64,000 nt of DNA from Candidatus Aceula meridiana (GCA_030765185.1 JAVCDE010000024.1:42975-106974); one strand, 5' to 3'; numbered from the stretch's first letter, positions 38,858-62,098 are shown. Numbers and translations: made by a program. The notes: generated by a model not told the origin, from the letters alone.

Positions 38858-41800
38858 CTACTGCTTCCTTACCGTCGCCTCACCTAGTCGAGTTAGGCTC
38901 AAAGCCTCGTCTTCTGCTCCCTCTCCCTCATTTAAACCCATTAACATGTTAAAATTTGTAATCGGAATAATGTTAATAATAACAGGAACAAAACCCTCAG
39001 CTTGACTTAGCGTCGCTGCATCAATTTCAGGAATATTAAATGCTACGCCCTCGCCTTTGGTCTCGACCTCAAACCCATCTGCATCGAAATCAATGCCTCC
39101 GGGTTTTTGAATTGACGGGGAACCTGCGCGCCCATCGATACTGCTTTTAGGTTTCGTGGGGCTATTTCCCCCAGAGATTGAGGTGTGTTTTTCTATCGCG
39201 ATGGAAAAACCTTCGCTTGGGAAATCTATTGTCTCCATGCCTCGCATACCCAACCCTATGGCGTCACGAATAGCACGAAAACTTTCTGGCGAAATTAAAA
39301 CTATATCTGTCCCAATCTTATCCCTCCTTATCGAAGATAAAAGCTCTACATCTCGATTACCTCGACTTTCTTTTTTTAATCGCGTTAAAATATCTCCGCG
39401 CCCTTCGAGCATTTCTCTAACCTCGGAAAGATTAAAAGACCTTACCAGCTCTAAAATAAAATCTTCTAAGTCTTTCGCAAGACTTTCTAAAGAATCTTTT
39501 GATGACCTCTCCGTTTCTTTCTCTTTATTTAATACTTCAGCATAACGTGTCCAAGCATAATCATAGGCAGTTGCAGACCCAGTATCTCTTCCACCATAAA
39601 TAATCTTGGGAGAGTGCGTTTCACCCTCCGTAGAATTGACAATATTAGGATTGCCAAGACTATAGCGAAGATATAGGTCTCTTATCTTAGGATAATTCTC
39701 AAATTTAAGTTGGTCAGACCCTAAATCAATGATAAAAGCAGGAACAGCATCCCTCCCTCTCTTGGCTTCCATATATACTTTATGCCTTCCGCGCAAAATA
39801 TACGCCTCGTTGTCTTTTCCTAATTTCAATAAAAGAACCGGTGGGGCAGGAAGCCCTAATTTTTCTCGAATAAATGCCTTAATGCGAACAATATTTATTT
39901 GATAAAAATTTAAATTAAAATCCTGCTCGAAATAAATATTTTTAAGCGGAAATTCTAAGTCAACACTCTCTTTTACAAGCTTAGGATACTCGTCTTTTAG
40001 GTCATTTTTTAAAAGACTGCCTACGGCATTCCGCAAATTTTTCCACGTAAAATCAGTATTAATATTGTTTAAAACTTGATAATAATCTTTTTCCTCTAAA
40101 GGAATATCAACAATGTAATCATATCTTTTTCCGCGAGAATCTTCTTTCTCTCTGAAATCCCACTGTTTTAAAATTTCGACAACTTTCTTATTATCCGTAA
40201 TAACATCAATCTTTCCACCTTTCGACAAGCTCCAACGGCAACGATTAATGTAATCTAAAATATTTCTTTCATCATAGTCAGACGTTTCGGATAACGATAA
40301 AAAAGTAATATGATCAAACAGTACCTCTTCGGGTTGATCATAATTACCGCCTGCATAAAATGATGTTTCGCCAAGGTTCTGCTTAATAAATGTAATTCCT
40401 GAATTCTTCTTAAGCCCTTCCCGAATAAGATCTCCTTGAATATCATTTGCAATAATATATGCACCCTTTTCTCCGTATTCGTAATCATAAAATGAGCTTG
40501 TTTTTTCGCCCTCCCCCGCTCCAAAATCAAGGACAACTTTAACATTAGGATTGTTTTTTCGAAAAATATCAAGAAAATCCTCAAACAACATTGCCACCAA
40601 TGCGTACGGCTCCCTTTCAAAATTATTAATAGCCGTTTCTCGATCGCCATCTTTCTCTTCCAAAGAAATTCTAATAGCACAGCCAAAACGAAATGGGATA
40701 TAAACTTCATCCTCAAGCGTTACGACAACATGTTCTAAATCAACATACATTTCATTTAAAAAGAACTTTTGTTCCTCGCTCAAATATTCTTTAAGATTAG
40801 CAGCAAGAACATCCTTAGATAATAATTTTTTCCCAATTTCATAAAAATAAGAAAATAGTTTCGTCTTTTTACCATCCTCGATTAGATCAAATGTTCGTCT
40901 AATTGCAAAAATATCATTGGCGTTAGGAATACTAAAAGGAAAGTTCTTTCTAAGGAGTTCTGCCTCTTCCTTCAAAATACGCTCTGACATCCTGATAAAA
41001 TCCTGCATTCTGATAACAAGGCTTACCGGCATTGAATCGTGGCCAGGCGCCATTCCAATAGCAATAGCACGTCTTGCGAGACTAATAGACTTTTCATACT
41101 TTTTCATGTCAAAATATTTCTCAGCAATCTCAAAAGTAATTCTCGAACGAACGCCGTGGGGAGAAGCCTTGTCGAGTTTATTACGCAATGCCTTTATGTC
41201 CTCTAATATTCTTTTATTTTTCCTAGAAACCTTAAAATCTATGCTGTCCTCCTCGTCGTCTTCTTTCCCTTTTCTGCCTTTTAGGTTAAAAATTTCTTTC
41301 CCTTCCTCCAGAGAACTTATACCCCGAACAATATTCGTAAATATTTGGTTCGGGACAGAGCCAAAAACTTTATCCTGAAGACCTTGATAAAAAGTAACAG
41401 AGAATTTTTTCCGCTCATCGCTTCCGGCACCCCGTAGATAACGGTGGATTGAAATACCTTTTTCTTTTAATATCTTTGCAAATTTCTTACCTTCTTTTGT
41501 TCTTAAAAAGCCTTCACCCGATTCATGGAAAAATCCAATGCTAGAAAGAATGTTTTGGTCAAGATAAACTCGATTCTTTTCAATATTATGCAAACCTTTA
41601 ATGTTGTAAGAATTTTCTTTAAGAAGATAAATGTCCTGCCTTTCCGAATACCTAGCAATAGCTGTAGCGATTTCTAAATCCATTCCCGTAAGCTTTCTTA
41701 TTTTGATATTATCCTTAATATCCCGAACATAAATCTTTTTAGCAATATCTGAAACCTTGTCTCCAAATTCAATAAAATTAATCCCTATCCCCTCCTTATC

Positions 41801-43261
41801 GTAAATCTTGACTCCATTTTTTAAAGTTATCCCAATTTTATTATTACCGTATTCTTCGATTAAAATATCGCCCTCAAGAAGAGGAAATCCTTTTTGTGTG
41901 TAAAACGTTGAGTAAACTTTCCCAATAAGCCCTGACGGAATCTCTCCTGCTAATCCATCTTTTTCTATAAAAAAGTCATTACCAGAGATCTTATCTTTGT
42001 CAGTCATCACCTCAATATTCAGATTTGAATTCACAGCTTGACCTCTAGAAAGAAATTGTGTAATTTCAGATTTAATAAACGAAAATCGGTTTTTAGCAGC
42101 TGATGAAATAGCATCACCTTGCTGTTCATGGCTTAGCGCATCAACCTCTGTATAGTCAGAATTTTCAGATATGTCCATGTTAAAACCACCAGAGAAATAT
42201 TTTCTTGGAGTGTTTCTTTGCGTGTACCCATCATGCTCAACCCTAATTATGTCACAGACGCCCTTTTTAAAGGCCTCGAGATATCGGTTATAAATTTTCT
42301 TTGAAATTTCTCTATCCTCAACGTCCACCCCTTTAACTTTACTTTTATCCGCATAAACTTGGTTTAAAATTGTTTCCTTGAGATTTTTCTTAAACCAATA
42401 TGCCAAAATCAAGGAAGAATAAATTTGGCGCAAAGGGGCAAAATTCTTTCCCTCGTTAATTTCACGCTCAAGCTCAGGAATAATAATTTCACGCATAACG
42501 GAAGTAGCGGTATCTGAAGGATTGGAAACGTCTTCTGTAAATCTTGAAGTATTCAAATTTTTCCCTATGATACGGTTCGCTGCTCGTTGTTCATTGCTTG
42601 CTAGATAATCCTGCTCTAACATAACGCGCAATGATGACTCTACGACAAACGCACGGTCGCCATTCTCATAAACAACAGCTTTTTGCGGCACGATCCAAAC
42701 CTTATGAAAAGTATCAACGGGTATATCTGTAATACCATATTGTTCGTAGACTTTTTTATAAATCGTATCCCAAAATTTCTTACCTAATTCATCTTCAGGG
42801 GATATTAAAGAAGCTGTGACCTGCTTTAAGAGGTAGTCTTGCGCAAGCATATCCCGACCCATTTCTGTAGATCCAAAATTATTAGGAATAATAAGGTCTT
42901 TTTCATAGGGTGAAAGATTGACCCATAAATTATTTTCGGGAATAGTTAAAGAGGCCAAAAAATATTTGATAAGTTTTTCGCTTTCGGGCTTTAGCTCCTT
43001 ACCCGTAAGCCCCGTATCTCCAGAATCTAAAATAAAATCAAATTTAAGAGGGTTGTTGGGGTAGATTTTGATACCGCGTAATATGGCGGGTGCAAAACCT
43101 GGGCTTAAGGGGACCATTACACCCGGGCTTGGCAATCCCAACAACCCCGTATTCGCAAAGGCAGACGGCGGGACTACAGTTGTCCCCATGAAAACCATAA
43201 GGACAAAGAATACCCCTACTTTAAAAAATGTACTCTTTTTTATAATTTTATAAGTAAGCAT
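38858..43261 (-). CDS. Giant secreted/membrane-anchored protein (1467 aa) of unknown function with internal class-I SAM-MTase-like Rossmann domain
   Basis: Sec-type signal peptide (K-rich N-region, hydrophobic core, AFA-N). Residues ~960-1090 carry methyltransferase motif I VLDFGAGEG, an acidic beta2 end (ANDIQ), and motifs II/III (FDHITF, SLSKGGKID). The remainder is unrecognisable, with a Ser/Pro/Gly-rich linker and a short hydrophobic C-terminal segment (FVPVIINIIPITNF). Own terminator upstream and strong coding signal throughout. Confidence 0.7.
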   Translation of the reverse strand: MLTYKIIKKSTFFKVGVFFVLMVFMGTTVVPPSAFANTGLLGLPSPGVMVPLSPGFAPAILRGIKIYPNNPLKFDFILDSGDTGLTGKELKPESEKLIKYFLASLTIPENNLWVNLSPYEKDLIIPNNFGSTEMGRDMLAQDYLLKQVTASLISPEDELGKKFWDTIYKKVYEQYGITDIPVDTFHKVWIVPQKAVVYENGDRAFVVESSLRVMLEQDYLASNEQRAANRIIGKNLNTSRFTEDVSNPSDTATSVMREIIIPELEREINEGKNFAPLRQIYSSLILAYWFKKNLKETILNQVYADKSKVKGVDVEDREISKKIYNRYLEAFKKGVCDIIRVEHDGYTQRNTPRKYFSGGFNMDISENSDYTEVDALSHEQQGDAISSAAKNRFSFIKSEITQFLSRGQAVNSNLNIEVMTDKDKISGNDFFIEKDGLAGEIPSGLIGKVYSTFYTQKGFPLLEGDILIEEYGNNKIGITLKNGVKIYDKEGIGINFIEFGDKVSDIAKKIYVRDIKDNIKIRKLTGMDLEIATAIARYSERQDIYLLKENSYNIKGLHNIEKNRVYLDQNILSSIGFFHESGEGFLRTKEGKKFAKILKEKGISIHRYLRGAGSDERKKFSVTFYQGLQDKVFGSVPNQIFTNIVRGISSLEEGKEIFNLKGRKGKEDDEEDSIDFKVSRKNKRILEDIKALRNKLDKASPHGVRSRITFEIAEKYFDMKKYEKSISLARRAIAIGMAPGHDSMPVSLVIRMQDFIRMSERILKEEAELLRKNFPFSIPNANDIFAIRRTFDLIEDGKKTKLFSYFYEIGKKLLSKDVLAANLKEYLSEEQKFFLNEMYVDLEHVVVTLEDEVYIPFRFGCAIRISLEEKDGDRETAINNFEREPYALVAMLFEDFLDIFRKNNPNVKVVLDFGAGEGEKTSSFYDYEYGEKGAYIIANDIQGDLIREGLKKNSGITFIKQNLGETSFYAGGNYDQPEEVLFDHITFLSLSETSDYDERNILDYINRCRWSLSKGGKIDVITDNKKVVEILKQWDFREKEDSRGKRYDYIVDIPLEEKDYYQVLNNINTDFTWKNLRNAVGSLLKNDLKDEYPKLVKESVDLEFPLKNIYFEQDFNLNFYQINIVRIKAFIREKLGLPAPPVLLLKLGKDNEAYILRGRHKVYMEAKRGRDAVPAFIIDLGSDQLKFENYPKIRDLYLRYSLGNPNIVNSTEGETHSPKIIYGGRDTGSATAYDYAWTRYAEVLNKEKETERSSKDSLESLAKDLEDFILELVRSFNLSEVREMLEGRGDILTRLKKESRGNRDVELLSSIRRDKIGTDIVLISPESFRAIRDAIGLGMRGMETIDFPSEGFSIAIEKHTSISGGNSPTKPKSSIDGRAGSPSIQKPGGIDFDADGFEVETKGEGVAFNIPEIDAATLSQAEGFVPVIINIIPITNFNMLMGLNEGEGAEDEALSLTRLGEATVRKQ

Positions 43262-54359: not shown

Positions 54360-54388
54360 ATTGTAGGGGCAGAAAAGAATTCTGTCAA
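54360..54388 (-). promoter_or_regulatory. Candidate sigma70 promoter for the DRE-TIM gene
   Basis: Minus strand TTGACA (54388-54383), 17 nt, TACAAT (54365-54360); GAGGAG Shine-Dalgarno before the ATG at 54224. Confidence 0.4.
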
Positions 54389-54690
54389 TTCCCAACTGCG
54401 CTTGATTTAAAATAAAGTTTTTTGTAAGCACAACGATCGTCACCTGGCCAATTCTTGTTCAAGATCTCCCGCAAAGGAACACAGCGAAACACCCTGCCTG
54501 CTTTTGTTTTGTGAAGTCCGAAACGATTGTCGTAGATGTTACAGATATAAATCCCTTTTTCTTTTTCGCTTAAATGCTCGCAGGGGTCTTCATCTTTGAT
54601 ACCACAACACATCCCGCAAAACTGGCAATAAGCTTCCCAATCACGTTCCTTCTCTGCTTGCAACTTTTGATAACGCTCTTGATCGTCCAT
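54385..54690 (-). CDS. YkgJ-family (UPF0153) cysteine-cluster protein
   Basis: 101 aa; CQFCGMCCG CxxCGxCC-type motif plus additional Cys (CEH, CN, C..C). Confidence 0.6.
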   Translation of the reverse strand: MDDQERYQKLQAEKERDWEAYCQFCGMCCGIKDEDPCEHLSEKEKGIYICNIYDNRFGLHKTKAGRVFRCVPLREILNKNWPGDDRCAYKKLYFKSSAVGN

Positions 54691-54710
54691 AATGTTATCG
54701 AAAAAATGAT

Positions 54711-57614
54711 TTAAATTTGTGTCTTAGGGCAAATTTGACTATAAGCACAATATTGGCAGGCATTGAAGTTTGGCCGTGCGTCAAAGATACCCTCCCGAAT
54801 TCCTTGAGATGCCTCCTGCACAGCTTTAAGAACTTTTTCGATATCTTTTGGTGAGGCCTCAGCACGCCCAACTAAGCCAGTTTCTAAAAAATGCAGCTCC
54901 TTATAACTAGGAAGCGCTCCTGTCATCTTTTCATAAGCTAAGCTATAAAGGCTTAATTGTAAATTAGCCTTTGTCTTTTCGTCAGCCTGCTTCTGAGTCT
55001 TAACTTCCGATGATTTAAAATCAATAACGGTCGCGCCTTTTTCAGTCACATCAACACGATCCCAGCGGCCAACAACGCGATTATTTTCAATCATGAAAGA
55101 AAATTCTTTTTCAACATACGAAGGAACGATTCTCAACTTTTCCTGCTGTTGATAAAAGTAACGCAAGGCCTTATCTGCGGCCTTAACACGCATATCAATA
55201 TGTTCTTTAGATAAAAAACCTTCACGCGCAAAAGAATTTCTAAAGGCGTCAACAACTTCGTCCGCAGTAACCGCCTGCCCATCCATCTTTCTCTGATGAT
55301 ATAACTGAACGGCATCATGAAGCGCCTTGCCGTAAGCCACAGTATGATGCTGCATAATGGGAACGTTTAAAATATGCACGTATTTATATTTCAAAGGACA
55401 AGTTTGATAATCATCGATTTGATAATAGCTAAGTTTTAAAATCTCCTCTTTATTAATTTTCTTAACAACCCCTAAGATAGGTGTTGCCGCAGGAGCGTGA
55501 CGTTCGATAGCTTCAATGGCGCTAGATTTAATAATTTCGATTTCGCGTTCTTCTTCAACCGCCTCCTTGACAAAACGGCTGACCTTGCGCATTTGCTTAG
55601 TTCCATAATCAAGTGCTGACGTTAAAAAGAGATTGTCTTTCGCGCGTGTCATCCCCACATAAAACAAACGCCTCTCCTCTTGAATATGAAAATCTCCTAA
55701 AGGAAGGATATCTTTGATAAGCTCTTTAGGAAGTTCAATTGGCTCGCTGCGCCTAGGCCACGGAAACTTTTTTTCCACCAAGCTCACGAGGAAAACAACA
55801 GGAAACTCTAAGCCCTTCGCCTTATGCAGCGTCAAAATATTAATCGCTGGCGTGTCCATCTCAGCCTCGGCAACAGCTGGGTCATCTCCCACGTTAATCA
55901 ACATATCAAGATAACCTACAAAATATAAAACCCGATCTTCCGTTGTGACATATTCGAAATTTTTAACAATGTCAAAAAACCGAGCAATGTTGCGCATGGT
56001 TTCGTCATTTTTAGCGGTTTCTTCTTGAAGCAAATGATTTAGATATCCAGTGTCTGATAAAAAGTTATATAACAGGCGGCCGGTTGGTTCTTGACGAGCA
56101 ATATCCATAAAAGACTCAAGACTCTCGAGCATCTTATCTTTTCTCCCTAGAAAATCTTGCGACAGGTCTGCCAAATCTTTTATCCTCACGACGTTCTTTA
56201 ATGTATAAAATAAATCCCATTGTTTACGCTTAGCAAAATGCATCGCACGCGTTAGATCAACAGCTTCAAGTTGATAGACCCAAGAGGTGGCAAGATAAAA
56301 CAAGCTTAAAGAGTCTGCAGGATTTGCTAAAACTCTTAAGAACGCAATGCATAGCCTTACCTCCGGCCGAGAATAAAGCCCCTGATTACCGCTAAACTGC
56401 CACGGAAGCCCACGCATATTAAGCGAGCGAATAAAAGGATCTGCTGTATTGTTTGATCTAACGAGAATAGCAAAATCATTGTAATCATGTTTCTTTTCTT
56501 TAACCGCCTTATCAATATATTCGGCAACCCAATCAGCCTCTGATGACAATGTATCAAAATGCACGTGCCTTGGCGCGTCACCTTTTTTGTTTTGAGCCTT
56601 TAATCTTTTATTAATTTTTGCCTGAACTTCAAACCGGTCCGGATTATTATTTTGAATCAGTTGATACGCAGAATCCAAGATTAGCTGGCTCGAGCGGTAA
56701 TTCTCAACAAGCGCAATCTTTTCGGCCTTGGGATACTTCTTCATAAAATTAAAAATATTGCTAACCGCTGCCCCACGCCATTTATAAATCGATTGGTCAT
56801 CATCGGCGACCACCGTTAAATTCTTATTTTTTCCGGATAGCAGCTGAACCAATTCAAACTGCGCATAATTTGTATCTTGAAATTCATCCACTAAAACATA
56901 GCGAAATTGTTCTTGATAGTGTTTTAAAACACGCGGATGCTCTCGCAAAAGTTTAAGAGCCAAAAAAAATTGATTGGCAAAATCAAGCTTGCCTTCTTTT
57001 AAAAGAAGCGTCTGGTATTGATCATAACAACGGGCGAGTTCCATCTGGCGGTCAGCCTCTTCGGCTAACGCAGCGTCCTTTTTATCCTTCACAGATTCCT
57101 GTTTTAATTCTTGCGCAAAGCAAAAATATTCCTGTGGTGAGACATCTTCATCGCGCGCACGTGAAAAGAGCGAAATCATCGCGTCAACAAATTTTGTTGG
57201 ATTTCCTAGAGGACGAAAATGCTCGAGTTGAAAATTAAAAAGATGTTCCTGAAAGAATACAGCAGCTTGCGGACGCGTCAATACCTTAAAGTCCGGGTCG
57301 AGGCCCAGCTCCAAAGCGTTTTCGCGTAAAATCCTATCACCAAACGAATGAAAAGTAGAAATCCAGGTATCTGTAAATCCGTACGGCACAAGAATGTCTA
57401 CCTTCTCTTGCATTTGATAGGCAGCTTTATCGGTAAATGTTAAGGCAAGAATTTGAGAAGGGTTTACCTTCTTGTTGATAATAAGATTGGCAATGCGCTG
57501 GGTGATAACTGTAGTTTTTCCGGTACCAGCCCCCGCGATAATAAGCAACGGGCCTTTGTCATGCAGAACAGACTTCTTCTGTTCCGTATTTAGCTTGAAG
57601 GCATCAATATCCAC
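54711..57614 (-). CDS. UvrD/PcrA-type SF1 helicase fused to C-terminal RecB-family (Cas4/AddB-like, Fe-S) PD-(D/E)XK nuclease
   Basis: 967 aa; Walker A AGAGTGKTT, helicase motifs through VDEFQDTN and TLHKAKGLEFPVV; C-terminal nuclease motifs GRWDRVD, VIDFKS, QLSLY and Cys cluster CQYCAYSQIC. Confidence 0.85.
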   Translation of the reverse strand: MDIDAFKLNTEQKKSVLHDKGPLLIIAGAGTGKTTVITQRIANLIINKKVNPSQILALTFTDKAAYQMQEKVDILVPYGFTDTWISTFHSFGDRILRENALELGLDPDFKVLTRPQAAVFFQEHLFNFQLEHFRPLGNPTKFVDAMISLFSRARDEDVSPQEYFCFAQELKQESVKDKKDAALAEEADRQMELARCYDQYQTLLLKEGKLDFANQFFLALKLLREHPRVLKHYQEQFRYVLVDEFQDTNYAQFELVQLLSGKNKNLTVVADDDQSIYKWRGAAVSNIFNFMKKYPKAEKIALVENYRSSQLILDSAYQLIQNNNPDRFEVQAKINKRLKAQNKKGDAPRHVHFDTLSSEADWVAEYIDKAVKEKKHDYNDFAILVRSNNTADPFIRSLNMRGLPWQFSGNQGLYSRPEVRLCIAFLRVLANPADSLSLFYLATSWVYQLEAVDLTRAMHFAKRKQWDLFYTLKNVVRIKDLADLSQDFLGRKDKMLESLESFMDIARQEPTGRLLYNFLSDTGYLNHLLQEETAKNDETMRNIARFFDIVKNFEYVTTEDRVLYFVGYLDMLINVGDDPAVAEAEMDTPAINILTLHKAKGLEFPVVFLVSLVEKKFPWPRRSEPIELPKELIKDILPLGDFHIQEERRLFYVGMTRAKDNLFLTSALDYGTKQMRKVSRFVKEAVEEEREIEIIKSSAIEAIERHAPAATPILGVVKKINKEEILKLSYYQIDDYQTCPLKYKYVHILNVPIMQHHTVAYGKALHDAVQLYHQRKMDGQAVTADEVVDAFRNSFAREGFLSKEHIDMRVKAADKALRYFYQQQEKLRIVPSYVEKEFSFMIENNRVVGRWDRVDVTEKGATVIDFKSSEVKTQKQADEKTKANLQLSLYSLAYEKMTGALPSYKELHFLETGLVGRAEASPKDIEKVLKAVQEASQGIREGIFDARPNFNACQYCAYSQICPKTQI

Positions 57615-57617
57615 AGA

Positions 57618-57806
57618 CTACGGCTTTTTTGTTGGCTTTTTGAATTTATTGAAAAAAGAACACTCGTATTTGCAGGCGATTTCTGGATAAGCACCTTTAA
57701 AATTTTCTGTACACGTATCCATACAAGAAAGGTATAAAATACTAACCGCTCGTATCGTAATCCAGATAATAATAACAATTAAAGCCCATAAAATTTTCCT
57801 TTTCAT
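57618..57806 (-). CDS. Small Cys-rich membrane protein (about 62 aa), hypothetical
   Basis: MKRKILWALIVIIIWITIRAV TM helix then CMDTC ... CKYEC; stop 3 nt before the helicase start (possible operon). Confidence 0.4.
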   Translation of the reverse strand: MKRKILWALIVIIIWITIRAVSILYLSCMDTCTENFKGAYPEIACKYECSFFNKFKKPTKKP

Positions 57807-57983
57807 TTTAACTCCTAAATAAGAACATGATTTACGGATTCGCAAATGACTTAAATCATTCGTGCGAATTTATCCCGTTTTTCACAAGCGAAAGACCGGG
57901 ACTTCCCTGAATAAAATTCATTATAGCAAACTCTCGCATTGAAAAAAACCTGTTTTTAAAGCTGTTTCTCCATAAATTCTCGC

Positions 57984-58011
57984 TTGACAAACCGCCATTT
58001 TCCAGTATACT
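57984..58011 (+). promoter_or_regulatory. Sigma70-type promoter for rpmB
   Basis: TTGACA (57984-57989), 16-nt spacer, TATACT (58006-58011); AAGGA Shine-Dalgarno before the ATG at 58041. Confidence 0.5.
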
Positions 58012-58040
58012 TCTAATTCAAGTAAAAAGGAAAAATCATT

Positions 58041-58271
58041 ATGGCAAAAATCTGTGAAATATGTGGAAAGACCGCGACCGCTGGGCGTCGATACAAACGC
58101 CGTGGTATGGCTGTGCGAAAAGGCGGTGCAGGTCAAAAAATTGTCGGAAAATCCATCCGGACTTTCACTCCCAATCTTCAAAGCATTAGAATCGTCCTCA
58201 ACGGCGGCGTAAAAAAAACTTCTGTCTGCGCCAAGTGTATCAAGGGCGGCAAAATTACAAAAGCAGCCTAA
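58041..58271 (+). CDS. rpmB: 50S ribosomal protein L28
   Basis: 76 aa; CEICGK zinc-ribbon start and L28 family sequence; 3' end overlaps the convergent recJ 3' end by 4 nt. Confidence 0.9.
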   Translation: MAKICEICGKTATAGRRYKRRGMAVRKGGAGQKIVGKSIRTFTPNLQSIRIVLNGGVKKTSVCAKCIKGGKITKAA

Positions 58272-59956
58272 GCTTCTTTAGCTTCCTTAATATCTTTCAA
58301 TTCTAGTTGGACTACAGGTTCTTTCTTCCAATCATCTATAGAAACTTTGTAAGCAATATCTATTTGTTTGCCCTGATCGACTAGCGGGCGGTAGGCTTCC
58401 ATACCAAATCCAACGGCTGAAAAAATATTCTTTCCATCTGTAACCCAAAATTTTAAAGTACCACGCCCTAAAATCGCAGGCGGACTTTTAACTGTAAGCC
58501 GGCGAGAACAAAAAATAGGCTCTGGATTCGCTTCACCATAAGGCTCAAGTTTCTGCACAATATCTACCAACTTCATATTTACACTAGAAAGCTGAATCTC
58601 ACAATCTACAGAAAGACTTGGTGTTAAATCTTCCTGCGAAATCTTTTCGTGAGCAATTTCATTCATCCGCTCCTTAAAGGCTTCTAATTTTTCTTCGCGA
58701 ATGGTCACGCCTGCCGCATATTTATGTCCTCCGTAATTTTCAAGCAAATCCGCACACTCCGAAAGTGCATCAAATAAATGAAACCCTGCGATCGAGCGGG
58801 CAGACCCTGTTGCAATCCCCTCTTCCATCGCAAGCACAATACTCGGACGATAATAAGTGTCAACAACACGCGAGGCCACAATGCCAACTACCCCTTTATG
58901 CCACCCCTCTTTGCTCAAAATAATAATTCGGTCTTTTTGAAAATTAATTTGATCCTCAACCATCGAAAGCGCCTCCTCAATGATTGCGCCTTGTTTTTTT
59001 TGACGTTCCCGATTATGGTCTTCTAAAATCTGAGCAATATCTTGCGCCTCTTTTTCACTCTGGCTTAAAAGAAGACCTAAAGATTTCTCAGCCGAAGCAA
59101 TACGCCCCATCGCGTTGATACGTGGCCCTAGAATAAAACCAACATGTCTTGGGGTTATTTTTTTACCTATAATACGCGCGTTCTTCATTAAAGCCAACAG
59201 TCCAAAATTCTTTGTCCTTTGAATTTCCGGCAGCCCAATCTTCACAAAAATACGATTTTCACCCCGAAGTGGTACAATATCAGCAATTGTCCCTAGAGCG
59301 ACCAAATCCAAATCCTTCATGTAATCTTTCCCCAAGAGAGCTTGAGCGAGCTTAAATGTCACAGCCACGGCTGCTAAGCCCCCAAAAGGATAAGGACAGT
59401 CTTTACGCTTAGGGTCTACAACTGCCACAGCTCTAGGAAGACTCTCTGCGGCTTCATGGTGGTCAACAATAATAACATCAATCCCCTCTCTGCGCAGTGT
59501 TTCAACTTGATCAATCGCGCTAATTCCACAATCTACGGTAATTAAAAGCGTAACGCCCTGCTCTTTAGCTTTTTTAGCAATAGTGTGATTAAGCCCGTAT
59601 CCATCTTTCACCCGGTGCGGAATGTGCGTTAAAACATCAATACCCATTTTCTTTAAAGCATTAGTTAAAATGGTTGATGATGTTACACCGTCTACATCGT
59701 AGTCACCAAAAATCAAAACGCGCTCTTTGTTTTGCTTGGCCTGATTGATTCGCGCAACAGCCTTATCCATATCTTTTAAAAGAAAAGGATCGTGCAGGCC
59801 GCTGACATCACCCGAAAGAAAATCTTTTGCCTCTTGAGGGCTCTCAATCCCCCGATTAATAAGAAGCTGGGCAACAACAGGATGGACCCCAAGAGTGTCG
59901 CTTAAAGAAACTTGAAGTTTAGGGTTTGGGATTTTGACGAGCCATCTTTTTAACAT
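58268..59956 (-). CDS. recJ: Single-stranded-DNA-specific exonuclease RecJ
   Basis: 562 aa; DHH motifs (GDYDVDGVTS, DHH in VDHHE), DHHA1 and C-terminal OB domain. Confidence 0.9.
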   Translation of the reverse strand: MLKRWLVKIPNPKLQVSLSDTLGVHPVVAQLLINRGIESPQEAKDFLSGDVSGLHDPFLLKDMDKAVARINQAKQNKERVLIFGDYDVDGVTSSTILTNALKKMGIDVLTHIPHRVKDGYGLNHTIAKKAKEQGVTLLITVDCGISAIDQVETLRREGIDVIIVDHHEAAESLPRAVAVVDPKRKDCPYPFGGLAAVAVTFKLAQALLGKDYMKDLDLVALGTIADIVPLRGENRIFVKIGLPEIQRTKNFGLLALMKNARIIGKKITPRHVGFILGPRINAMGRIASAEKSLGLLLSQSEKEAQDIAQILEDHNRERQKKQGAIIEEALSMVEDQINFQKDRIIILSKEGWHKGVVGIVASRVVDTYYRPSIVLAMEEGIATGSARSIAGFHLFDALSECADLLENYGGHKYAAGVTIREEKLEAFKERMNEIAHEKISQEDLTPSLSVDCEIQLSSVNMKLVDIVQKLEPYGEANPEPIFCSRRLTVKSPPAILGRGTLKFWVTDGKNIFSAVGFGMEAYRPLVDQGKQIDIAYKVSIDDWKKEPVVQLELKDIKEAKEA

Positions 59957-59958
59957 GG

Positions 59959-61632
59959 CTACATCTTTTTGGGCGCGCTTACACCTAGCAGTGTAAGGCC
60001 ATTATGAAAAACAATACGTGCCGCTTCAATTAGCGCAAGGCGCTGACAAGACAAGGCTTGGTCCTCGCCGATGACTTTGTGTTTGTCATAAAACCTATGA
60101 AAACACGCTGCCAGTTCTATCAAATAAGTCACCATCCCAAATGGGTCAAGCTGTCCTAGACAAATTGAAAGTGCGTCTTCAAAAGATGCCATTTTCTGAA
60201 TAAGATCAATTTCTTCCGACTCTTGTAAAAGCGTAAAATCTTTTTCAGCAATTTTAAGATTTGCTTCTTTGGCTTTGGTAAAGATACTGTTGATGCGCGC
60301 GTGGGCGTACTGAATATAATAAACCGGATTTTCCGGGCTTTGCTCTTTAGCAAGTTCCAAATCAAAATCTAAGTGAACCTTAATATGACGCATCAAAAAG
60401 AAAAACCGCGCCGCGTCAAAACCGACATCTTGCATGACTTGACGAAGGCTAATAAACTCACCCTTACGCGTTGACATCGAGAGTGGTTGACCCTTGCGAT
60501 AAAGTGACGCTAGCTGAACGATTAAGACCTCTACATCATCTCTACTATGACCTAGAGCCTCTACAGCAGCCTTTAAACGAGCTATATATCCGTGATGATC
60601 CGGTCCCAAGATATTAATAACTCTATTAAAGCCACGATCAAACTTATCCTTGTGATACGCAATGTCAGGCGCCAGATAGGTATAGTTGCCGTCCGACTTT
60701 TTAACCACACGGTCTTTGTCGTCTCCTAAGTCTGTAGACTTAAACCAAGTAGCCCCATCTTTTTCATAAAGATATCCTTTTTCCTCAATAACTTTAAGCG
60801 CGTCCTCAATACTTTTTGGCGTTGCGATTTTAGTCTGCGAAGACCAAACATCAAAATGAACGTTAAAATCTTCCAGATCTTGCTTAATCTCATCTAAAAG
60901 AACTTTCACCCCAAATTTCTCGAAGTCCTTGGTAGGGACAGCTTCCAATGCTTGAACATCACAAATATTTCTTTCTTTCATAAAATCTTTAGCCAATCGC
61001 TTAATATAGGCCCCTTGATAGTAATCCTCAGGGAAATCAACAGTCTCCCCTAGTATCTCTGCTGCGCGTGCATTAATCGATCCGCCTAAAATTTTTATCT
61101 GATTACCTTCATCATTAATATAGTATTCTTTTTTAATGTCATAACCTAAAAACCCTAAAATATTTCCAAGCGCATCGCCTACGGCAGCCTGTCGGGCATG
61201 TGCGACAGTTAAAGGTCCGGTTGGATTTGCCGAAACAAATTCAATCTGAATCTTATTCCCCTTGCCTTGCGTTGAGCGGCCATACTGATCACCCTGATTT
61301 AAAACATCACTAAGCACATCACAAAAAGCAATATTAGCCAAGAAGAAATTAATAAAACCGGGATTTTTTACTTCAATAGATTTAATTTTTTCCTTAAGGG
61401 AAGATTTTTCTAAATTCTGCTCTAAAACCTCTGCCACTTCTTGCGCAATAATCTTAGGACTCTTCTTTAAAACCTTTACCAGACGCAAGGCCGCGCTGCA
61501 GGAAAACTCTCCGTGAATCTTTTCTTTTGGTTTTTCTAACACCAAGAGGGCTGGGTCAATAGAGGTTTTGCAGACTTCCTCAAGAGAAATTTTCAGAAGT
61601 TTTTCGATTTCTTTTTTTAGGTTGGATAGCAT
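59959..61632 (-). CDS. argS: Arginine--tRNA ligase
   Basis: 557 aa; class I HIGH-type motif (PTGPLTVAHAR) and C-terminal DALR anticodon-binding domain. Confidence 0.93.
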   Translation of the reverse strand: MLSNLKKEIEKLLKISLEEVCKTSIDPALLVLEKPKEKIHGEFSCSAALRLVKVLKKSPKIIAQEVAEVLEQNLEKSSLKEKIKSIEVKNPGFINFFLANIAFCDVLSDVLNQGDQYGRSTQGKGNKIQIEFVSANPTGPLTVAHARQAAVGDALGNILGFLGYDIKKEYYINDEGNQIKILGGSINARAAEILGETVDFPEDYYQGAYIKRLAKDFMKERNICDVQALEAVPTKDFEKFGVKVLLDEIKQDLEDFNVHFDVWSSQTKIATPKSIEDALKVIEEKGYLYEKDGATWFKSTDLGDDKDRVVKKSDGNYTYLAPDIAYHKDKFDRGFNRVINILGPDHHGYIARLKAAVEALGHSRDDVEVLIVQLASLYRKGQPLSMSTRKGEFISLRQVMQDVGFDAARFFFLMRHIKVHLDFDLELAKEQSPENPVYYIQYAHARINSIFTKAKEANLKIAEKDFTLLQESEEIDLIQKMASFEDALSICLGQLDPFGMVTYLIELAACFHRFYDKHKVIGEDQALSCQRLALIEAARIVFHNGLTLLGVSAPKKM

Positions 61633-61717: not shown

Positions 61718-62098
61718 TTATTCCCAATTAATCTTCTTACCGGCCTGCCAGAGGTGCTCTAATCCGTAAAATTCCCGCGTTTCTTTCTCAAAAACATGTG
61801 TCACGATGTCGCCACCATCAACAATAACCCATTTGGAGTCTTTTAGCCCTTGAGGGCGAGGAATATACCTACCCTCTTGCTGAAGGCCCTCACGGATATT
61901 GTCAGCAATTGCCTTAACCTGACGGTCAGAATTACCTGAGCAGATAACAAAATAATCGCAGAAGTTTGCCAATTTTCGGACATCCAGCACGACAAGGTGC
62001 TCAGCTTTCTTGTCCAAAGCAAGTTCTGCGATTAAAGAGATAGTCTTCTTGGCAATGGCCAGCGACGATTTTCGCGGTGTTGAATTCTGTTTAGCCAA
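61718..62098 (-). CDS. rsfS: Ribosomal silencing factor RsfS (Iojap)
   Basis: 126 aa; DYFVICSGNSDRQVKAIADNI motif. Confidence 0.85.
   Translation of the reverse strand: MAKQNSTPRKSSLAIAKKTISLIAELALDKKAEHLVVLDVRKLANFCDYFVICSGNSDRQVKAIADNIREGLQQEGRYIPRPQGLKDSKWVIVDGGDIVTHVFEKETREFYGLEHLWQAGKKINWE

Follow-up and report, generated by a model that had tools for sequence, protein, structure and literature searches.

What is the function of a single polypeptide that carries both a UvrD-type helicase and a nuclease with a Cas4- or AddB-like set of four cysteines, and that is encoded with no partner subunit nearby? Such a protein is found in a 64,000-nucleotide stretch of the genome of Candidatus Aceula meridiana, a member of the phylum Omnitrophota (GCA_030765185.1, JAVCDE010000024.1:42975-106974). 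We refer to this whole stretch as the window, and count positions from its first letter. The original prediction for this locus placed the helicase-nuclease in a possible operon with two small cysteine-rich proteins, and weighed a role in recombinational repair and one in anti-phage defence. Our analyses favour, with a probability of roughly 70%, the view that the gene encodes a chromosomal, vertically inherited enzyme of DNA repair or recombination, in which a PcrA/UvrD-type motor is combined with a Cas4/AdnA/AddB-type nuclease. On this view, the protein is an ordinary repair helicase-nuclease, uncharacterised but unsurprising in architecture; the family of fusions to which it conforms has already been described (Hudaiberdiev et al. 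2017).

Region 54385-57845 of the minus strand comprises three open reading frames (ORFs), all on that strand in the ORF listing. The helicase-nuclease gene (54711-57614, minus strand), delimited by the ORF list, its translation and Pfam searches, begins with GTG, ends with TAA and encodes 967 amino acids (aa). This protein is identical (100%) over its full length to an NCBI-annotated protein (P0001) from the metagenome-assembled genome (MAG) of Candidatus Aceula meridiana. Three Pfam domains were detected in it, namely UvrD-helicase at aa 8-295 (PF00580, E = 4e-77), UvrD_C at aa 300-666 (PF13361, E = 7e-55) and PDDEXK_1 at aa 728-963 (PF12705, E = 4e-35), along with a weak match to Cas_Cas4. 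The base composition of the window is uniform, with no anomaly. The full-length AlphaFold2 model of the protein has a predicted local distance difference test score (pLDDT) of 77 and a predicted template modelling score (pTM) of 0.54. Residues are given below in the true numbering of the protein unless stated otherwise; both the model and our alignment of 37 homologues (A1), the first sequence of which lacks residue 1, are numbered one lower.

The motor occupies aa 8-666 (55617-57593, minus strand) and was assigned to the UvrD/PcrA type of superfamily 1A (SF1A) by the two Pfam domains, the NCBIfam pcrA model, a sequence match to the PcrA structure 1pjr and a fold match. Its motifs are intact, with Walker A GAGTGKT at aa 28-34, motif II DEFQD at aa 243-247 and motif III DDDQSIYKWRGA at aa 271-282. 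Residues G28-K33 of Walker A as well as DEFQD are invariant in the 37 homologues, and motif III is largely so. Among the NCBIfam models pcrA gave the best score (481.6 bits), followed by rep (399), uvrD (359-368), addA (209) and recB (155). The proteins in the PDB most similar in sequence were PcrA (1pjr, E = 9e-96), UvrD of D. radiodurans (5e-80) and Rep (1e-69), and the resection motors gave 5e-52 (AdnB), 8e-31 (AddA) and 1e-8 (RecB). The best fold match of the full-length model was also PcrA, at 32% identity, with AddA and AdnB among the other fold matches. The motor is nearer to PcrA, UvrD and Rep, which it matches over the whole core of the motor domains, than to AddA, AdnB or RecB. Nevertheless, the protein does not score as an equivalog of PcrA or UvrD. 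The pcrA model (TIGR01073) has a cut-off of 911.2 bits against the 481.6 obtained, and the uvrD models have cut-offs of 965-1144 bits. The match to TIGR01073 covers model positions 4-638 of 725, indicating that the C-terminal end of PcrA, ~90 residues of which are unmatched, has been replaced by a linker (aa 690-727) and a 240-aa nuclease of the Fe-S (iron-sulfur) type.

Helicase motif III is split by inteins of ~360 aa (Pfam Intein_splicing/Hint) in several Omnitrophota orthologues, including proteins P0030, P0033, P0035, P0048, P0074 and P0092 and the genes at loci L019 (6845-10804) and L061 (6235-10155). The insertion point lies exactly between DDDQ and S/C-IYxWRGA, at a site that follows residue 274 in the numbering of the window protein, which is itself free of an intein. 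The usual hosts of inteins are essential proteins of replication and repair.

The linker between motor and nuclease (aa 690-727; 55434-55547, minus strand) is poorly conserved in alignment A1 and was partly modelled with low confidence. In model numbering, the pLDDT falls below 50 at aa 688-690 and 706-714, and 10-residue blocks over ~aa 691-720 have mean values of 59, 48 and 57. The nuclease that follows (aa 728-963; 54726-55433, minus strand) was recognised by PF12705, by its sequence profile and by its fold as a PD-(D/E)XK enzyme with a four-cysteine motif of the Fe-S type. C739 is the first of the four cysteines, and the remaining three are arranged as C953-x2-C956-x5-C962 within CQYCAYSQIC (aa 953-962). 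These cysteines, together with the catalytic residues E835, D852, D865, K867, Q886 and Y890, are invariant in the 37 sequences.

A single-sequence search of the PDB with the nuclease domain yielded nothing meaningful, and profile and fold searches were needed to place it. The sequence profile matched AdnB (E = 9e-6) and AdnA (E = 2e-3). In these alignments the CxxCxxxxxC portion fell on the cluster cysteines of AdnA and the catalytic core on that of AdnB, D865 coinciding with catalytic D1014, the residue whose replacement gives the nuclease-dead AdnB D1014A. The AlphaFold2 model of the domain (pLDDT 85) had as its best fold match the AdnA nuclease (E = 4e-10; template modelling score, TM, 0.63-0.67), followed by ACE1 of the Cas4 family (1e-8), the AddB nuclease (2e-7) and the Dna2 nuclease (5e-6), and it also matched RecE and Cas4. 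Judged from profile and model, the nuclease is closest to the AdnA/AddB/Cas4 group, and we regard its four cysteines as a predicted Fe-S site on the basis of their conserved pattern and their alignment to the AdnA ligands. The description of the protein in the original prediction was borne out by these data: (i) the 967-aa fusion is real, as its ORF, an identical annotated protein, its Pfam domains and its motifs were all found, (ii) the helicase precedes the nuclease in the Pfam domain order, (iii) the SF1 UvrD/PcrA motor is complete, pcrA being the best NCBIfam model, and (iv) the RecB-family nuclease possesses the four-cysteine arrangement of Cas4 and AddB. The proposed comparison of the nuclease with the latter two produced fold matches to both, albeit with AdnA at the top.

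If the two halves act together, the window enzyme would be a one-polypeptide counterpart of the two-subunit resection machines AddAB and AdnAB. Its motor, being of the PcrA/UvrD type, is expected to translocate 3'-to-5' on single-stranded DNA and would unwind DNA from a nick, a gap or an end, and the tethered nuclease would then degrade one strand of the opened duplex, which, to judge from the fold class of the nuclease, is most probably the 5' strand. The most likely product would be a 3' single-stranded tail for RecA, since in AdnAB and AddAB it is the displaced 5' strand that this type of Fe-S nuclease processes. The AdnAB complex has its Fe-S cluster in AdnA, whose nuclease takes up and cleaves that strand, while the AdnB motor drives the 3' strand to the AdnB nuclease, which has no Fe-S cluster (PMC13000450). 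By analogy, the window protein would work like PcrA fused to an AdnA/AddB-type nuclease, yet it is not a member of either system. Alternatively, the enzyme may serve in excision in the manner of UvrD, with strand degradation built in.

The distribution of homologues fits a gene that belongs to the chromosome. More than 120 full-length homologues with 54-87% identity were found in a protein database, where those with a named source are all labelled Omnitrophota and where the JGI label is 'DNA helicase-2/PcrA'. A species-level scan, in which one genome per GTDB species was searched with the clade-specific nuclease motifs CPLKYKYV and [YFN]CA[YF][NSR][QE]ICP, revealed 571 relatives. We analysed the loci of the best 80 of these, which come mostly from Omnitrophota but also from genomes labelled Aerophobetes, Zixibacteria, KSB1 and Nitrospirae/Nitrospirota. 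All of the 80 are continuous helicase-nuclease fusions wherever the contig extends far enough upstream, with 51-75% identity to the window protein. Overall, then, full-length fusions sharing 51-87% identity are spread over Omnitrophota and several other phyla. Frameshifts were seen in three of the 80 (L051, L068 and L071), which may be assembly errors or pseudogenes. Two MAGs have two copies of the gene on different contigs (L037 and L069; L051 and L068), and these may represent paralogues or mixed populations.

The gene order around these relatives is that of a core-genome locus. Upstream, recJ was found in 29 of the 51 species-level loci that are informative on this side, and the usual order is M16 peptidase-rsfS-argS-recJ-(rpmB, on the opposite strand)-gene. 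Downstream, the gene in L064 is followed by rpsO-pnp-ftsK-rodZ (L064 10901-16369), and ~10 other loci have an unannotated ORF of 710-740 aa at the position of ftsK in L064. One Aerophobetes genome has the order mnmA-gene-rmuC-pyrF, and in one Zixibacteria genome the gene follows mltG. The surroundings had been described in the original prediction as unusual for a repair gene, but that impression was an artefact of a view restricted to the downstream side: in the window, too, recJ, argS, rsfS and rpmB lie upstream, in an order that recurs across Omnitrophota.

Several points weigh against the assignment to DNA repair or against parts of it. The recJ synteny is missing in 22 of the 51 informative loci and in every locus that is not labelled Omnitrophota, and recJ and the helicase gene do not form one transcript, as they are separated by rpmB on the opposite strand. 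The strand cut by the nuclease is assigned from the fold class alone, and the profile of the nuclease core fits AdnB, the nuclease of the 3' strand, slightly better than AdnA. The full-length model is unreliable as to the geometry between the domains and, because the pTM is only 0.54, we left the relative placement of motor and nuclease uninterpreted. Distant members of the same architecture occupy defence-like contexts, both in the published survey (PMC5704561) and in the plasmid loci described below. Finally, our literature search found no biochemical study of any UvrD-Cas4-type fusion, this clade included, and nothing relevant on DNA repair in Omnitrophota.

A stronger version of the repair hypothesis is doubtful. 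It holds that the protein is both the sole UvrD-family helicase and the sole enzyme for resection of double-strand breaks in Omnitrophota and in members of Aerophobetes, Zixibacteria, KSB1 and Nitrospirota, where it would replace PcrA/UvrD as well as RecBCD/AddAB, possibly together with the RecJ encoded next to it. As such it would amount to a minimal AddAB/AdnAB in one chain, with an active 3'-5' motor coupled to the Fe-S nuclease for the 5' strand. If the protein is genuinely the only UvrD-type or end-resection enzyme of its hosts, which often have small genomes, no simpler bacterial helicase-nuclease for recombinational repair would be known, and the protein would be a convenient single-chain model for the coupling of an Fe-S nuclease to an SF1A motor.

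The most serious competitor of the repair assignment, though we consider it very unlikely, is defence: the protein would be a stand-alone or accessory anti-phage or anti-plasmid effector that unwinds and degrades invading DNA, in the manner of GajB or Nhi or of the UvrD-Cas4-like fusions beside Type III restriction-modification or Dcm/Vsr genes. No other branch of pfam12705 is as large as that of these fusions, which have been recorded in many bacteria and in mesophilic archaea and have helicase domains that are monophyletic; some adjoin Type III restriction-modification or Dcm/Vsr genes and others stand alone, and the survey ties the fusions to defence loci (Hudaiberdiev et al. 2017, PMC5704561). 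On sequence grounds, the window protein fits the architectural definition of this family. Its UvrD-like SF1 helicase precedes a PF12705 nuclease that bears the four cysteines of Cas4 type, and the protein aligns collinearly from end to end (25% identity, E = 5e-66) with a plasmid member whose gene has dcm and a restriction enzyme gene as neighbours. On plasmids we detected 61 near-full-length fusions with the same collinear architecture and 25-29% identity, and the three plasmid loci inspected are all defence-like or accessory in setting. In L086 (a Vibrio plasmid) the fusion lies among genes for a methyltransferase, an MvaI/BcnI restriction enzyme, dcm and a toxin-antitoxin system; in L087 (a Mesorhizobium plasmid) it adjoins multiubiquitin/ThiF/DUF6527 genes, a reverse transcriptase gene and an AddAB-like pair; and in L088 (a Methanomethylovorans plasmid) it is near csa3. 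Furthermore, the PADLOC models for GajB and for the DRT helicase match the window motor strongly, with E-values of 1e-95 and 2e-93.

The PADLOC models in question, however, describe UvrD helicases in general, and no defence model was matched by any of the five neighbours tested. Neither the window nor the homologous loci examined yielded genes for GajA, Mod/Res, Dcm or Vsr; for Gabija in particular, its GajA component (an OLD-family ATPase-TOPRIM nuclease) was not seen. Neither CRISPR-cas nor Argonaute genes are among the annotated neighbours in the window, and no signature of a mobile element is found nearby. No close relative carried by phages was found in viral contigs, which hold only stand-alone Cas4-like nucleases at 20-26% identity. 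The plasmid versions, at 25-29% identity, are set apart from a clade whose members share 51-87% across phyla, and the pcrA model gives them 257-352 bits, as compared with 482 for the window protein and 444 for an Aerophobetes orthologue. The window clade thus differs from the family at large in being far more conserved and more PcrA-like, and in being located among core genes in loci where Type III restriction-modification and Dcm/Vsr genes were not found. Core-gene synteny, phylum-wide retention and inteins are all atypical of defence genes. The earlier suggestion of a defence effector akin to Nhi, Hachiman or Gabija therefore received no support. By sequence, the window gene is instead a core-genome representative of the UvrD-Cas4-like fusions, in a chromosomal clade that evolves slowly and stands apart from the mobile members associated with defence, since the latter show low identity, lower pcrA scores and defence-type contexts, and the viral ones are stand-alone nucleases. 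One candidate defence system is struck from the list, and a family discussed mainly in the context of defence is seen to include a slowly evolving core-genome clade across several uncultured phyla.

A two-subunit resection complex in which the protein plays the part of AddA or AdnB, with its AddB or AdnA partner encoded at another site in the genome, is in our view highly improbable. The idea draws on the helicase-then-nuclease order, which is that of AddA and AdnB, on the profile match of the nuclease to AdnB (E = 9e-6) and on the presence of AddA and AdnB among the fold matches. AdnA and AdnB each consist of a UvrD-like module followed by a RecB-like nuclease, and in the Bacillus-type AddAB system AddA has a nuclease after its UvrD-like motor, and the AddB nuclease is of the same Fe-S fold class as that of the window protein. 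Nevertheless, the scores for the AddA models (TIGR02785, 208.8 bits against a cut-off of 707.65; TIGR02784, 131 against 861) and for the RecB model (155 against 696) are far below their cut-offs, and the motor is much nearer to PcrA/UvrD.

The Fe-S nuclease is usually found on the motor-dead subunit (AddB or AdnA), and the genes of addAB and of adnAB are adjacent. It is because the two-subunit machines put that nuclease on the motor-dead subunit that the joining of an active-type SF1A motor and an Fe-S nuclease type in one chain sets the window protein apart. AddAB would require the Fe-S-type nuclease on a chain other than that of the active motor, and an adjacent addB, for a degenerate helicase with an Fe-S nuclease, was found neither in the window nor in the 85 loci. 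The AdnAB heterodimer is encoded by adjacent genes and bears its Fe-S nuclease on the passive-motor subunit (PMC13000450), while the window gene, which combines an intact motor and the Fe-S-type nuclease, has no adjacent paralogue. The 64-kb window encodes no further helicase or nuclease of partner size, and no second helicase-like or nuclease-like ORF was detected within ~10 kb in the 85 loci by hidden Markov models of both domains and by ORF size, the annotated large neighbours being FtsK, PNPase, GH94 and similar proteins. The original prediction was right in this respect, as it had noted that no partner subunit is nearby.

Two further groups of proteins share parts of the architecture. Dna2 and bacterial Bad likewise unite an Fe-S PD-(D/E)XK nuclease and an SF1 motor in one chain (PMC7430649), but theirs is a nuclease-first order with an SF1B motor (5'-3'), whereas the order is reversed in the window protein and its motor is SF1A (3'-5'). 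Cas4 and the solo nucleases SSO0001 and ACE1 resemble the window nuclease in fold and cysteine pattern; the latter, however, is fused to a helicase, and its score for the Cas4 model TIGR00372 is 49.9 bits against a cut-off of 65.

Turning to the two small neighbours of the helicase-nuclease gene, directly upstream is a gene for a membrane-anchored protein (57618-57806, minus strand; 62 aa from the ATG), the stop codon of which lies 3 nt ahead of the helicase GTG. In its translation, a hydrophobic segment follows a basic N-terminus, and there are two CxxxC pairs. The start is most likely the ATG at 57806 and unlikely to be the TTG at 57845, because (i) the ATG is preceded by AGGAG and (ii) the L001 homologue begins at the equivalent point. 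The small transmembrane protein proposed earlier is therefore confirmed in its 3-nt gap, its hydrophobic segment and its two CxxxC pairs, but not in its start at 57845. Downstream, 20 nt past the helicase stop, the translation of 54385-54690 (minus strand) is a 101-aa protein with a CxxCxxCC motif. It had been described as YkgJ-type, and the motif is indeed present; the likeness to the YcgN/YkgJ family is weak, as the NCBIfam YcgN models gave only E = 6e-7 and 29 bits against cut-offs of at least 104, and a Pfam search with the protein gave no match.

Only five of the 80 species-level loci (L006-L010), plus L001, have the small membrane gene immediately ahead of the helicase gene, all of them in the closest clade (69-75% helicase identity), and the YcgN-like gene was found in only two, L006 (the same species as L001) and L007. 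In this species, Candidatus Aceula lacicola (L001/L006), a gene for a 503-aa membrane protein is located between the helicase gene and the YcgN-like gene. The proposed functional operon with two cysteine-rich proteins fails on this lack of conservation, and there is no sign that the helicase-nuclease depends on the small genes. Homologues that lack them retain the housekeeping synteny, an outcome that the original prediction had named as one that would refute it. We interpret both as lineage-specific neighbours outside the machine, which may be co-transcribed with it here. It is scarcely credible that the three genes form a module, for instance for the delivery or sensing of a redox or metal cofactor of the Fe-S nuclease: the same-strand gaps of 3 nt and 20 nt, a promoter-like site that appears only past the third gene and the position of the small membrane gene kept in five related species are all in its favour, but the small gene is missing in 75 and the YcgN-like gene in 78 of the 80 loci, the 503-aa protein intervenes in Candidatus Aceula lacicola, the flanks in other Omnitrophota are tilS-like, rpsO or response-regulator genes, and the four cysteines of the small protein are probably extracytoplasmic, as they come after the membrane anchor.

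The promoter-like site is TTGACA-17-TACAAT (54360-54388, minus strand), which was found in a consensus scan with 11 of 12 matches, overlaps the stop of the YcgN-like gene and precedes an aldolase gene. This consensus match suggests that the genes for the aldolase, two regulators and a kinase are a separate transcription unit. Pfam confirmed these products as described earlier, i.e., a DRE-TIM aldolase, two receiver-only response regulators and a Cache/HAMP kinase. A receiver-only regulator gene is also located on the same strand ~0.5 kb or less downstream of the helicase-nuclease gene in nine of 78 loci from several separate Omnitrophota lineages (L004/L005/L035, L007-L010, L039 and L048; 55-470 nt), and the receiver genes of the window are 1.5 kb downstream. 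We considered such regulators as conserved partners and rejected them, as they are directly downstream in just these nine of 78 loci.

On the other side of the small membrane gene, rpmB (ribosomal protein L28; 58041-58271, plus strand) was identified from its translation, from a PF00830 match at the equivalent place in L001, L002 and L004, and by tblastn in the loci. It is followed by recJ for the single-strand-specific 5'-3' exonuclease (58268-59956, minus strand; TIGR00644, 584 bits against a cut-off of 397), argS (59959-61632, minus strand; TIGR00456, 460 bits) and rsfS (61718-62098, minus strand; PF02410 (RsfS) in L001, L002 and L004, and the synteny table). Co-transcription of recJ with the helicase gene was considered and rejected, because rpmB intervenes on the opposite strand, between recJ and the small membrane gene. 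rpmB and recJ are convergent and overlap by 4 nt, and an 86-aa minus-strand ORF (57921-58181) that overlaps rpmB is probably spurious.

Other core genes of the window are ligA, ftsK and pnp and those for iPGM, a MiaB-like enzyme and an enzyme of the CCA-adding type. rpsO-pnp-ftsK are found at 27616-23035 on the minus strand, ~27 kb from the helicase-nuclease gene. As they directly follow this gene in L064, the part of the window from ~27.7 to 54.7 kb gives the appearance of having been inserted or rearranged in this lineage. Within it are the YcgN-like gene, the aldolase, the two regulators, the Cache kinase and a 1467-aa orphan ORF (38858-43261, minus strand), for which no Pfam match was obtained at E = 1e-5. 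Nearly all genes of the window are on the minus strand and the GC (guanine-cytosine) skew is negative throughout; the cumulative skew falls monotonically, indicating that the window lies within one replichore and that its genes are co-oriented.

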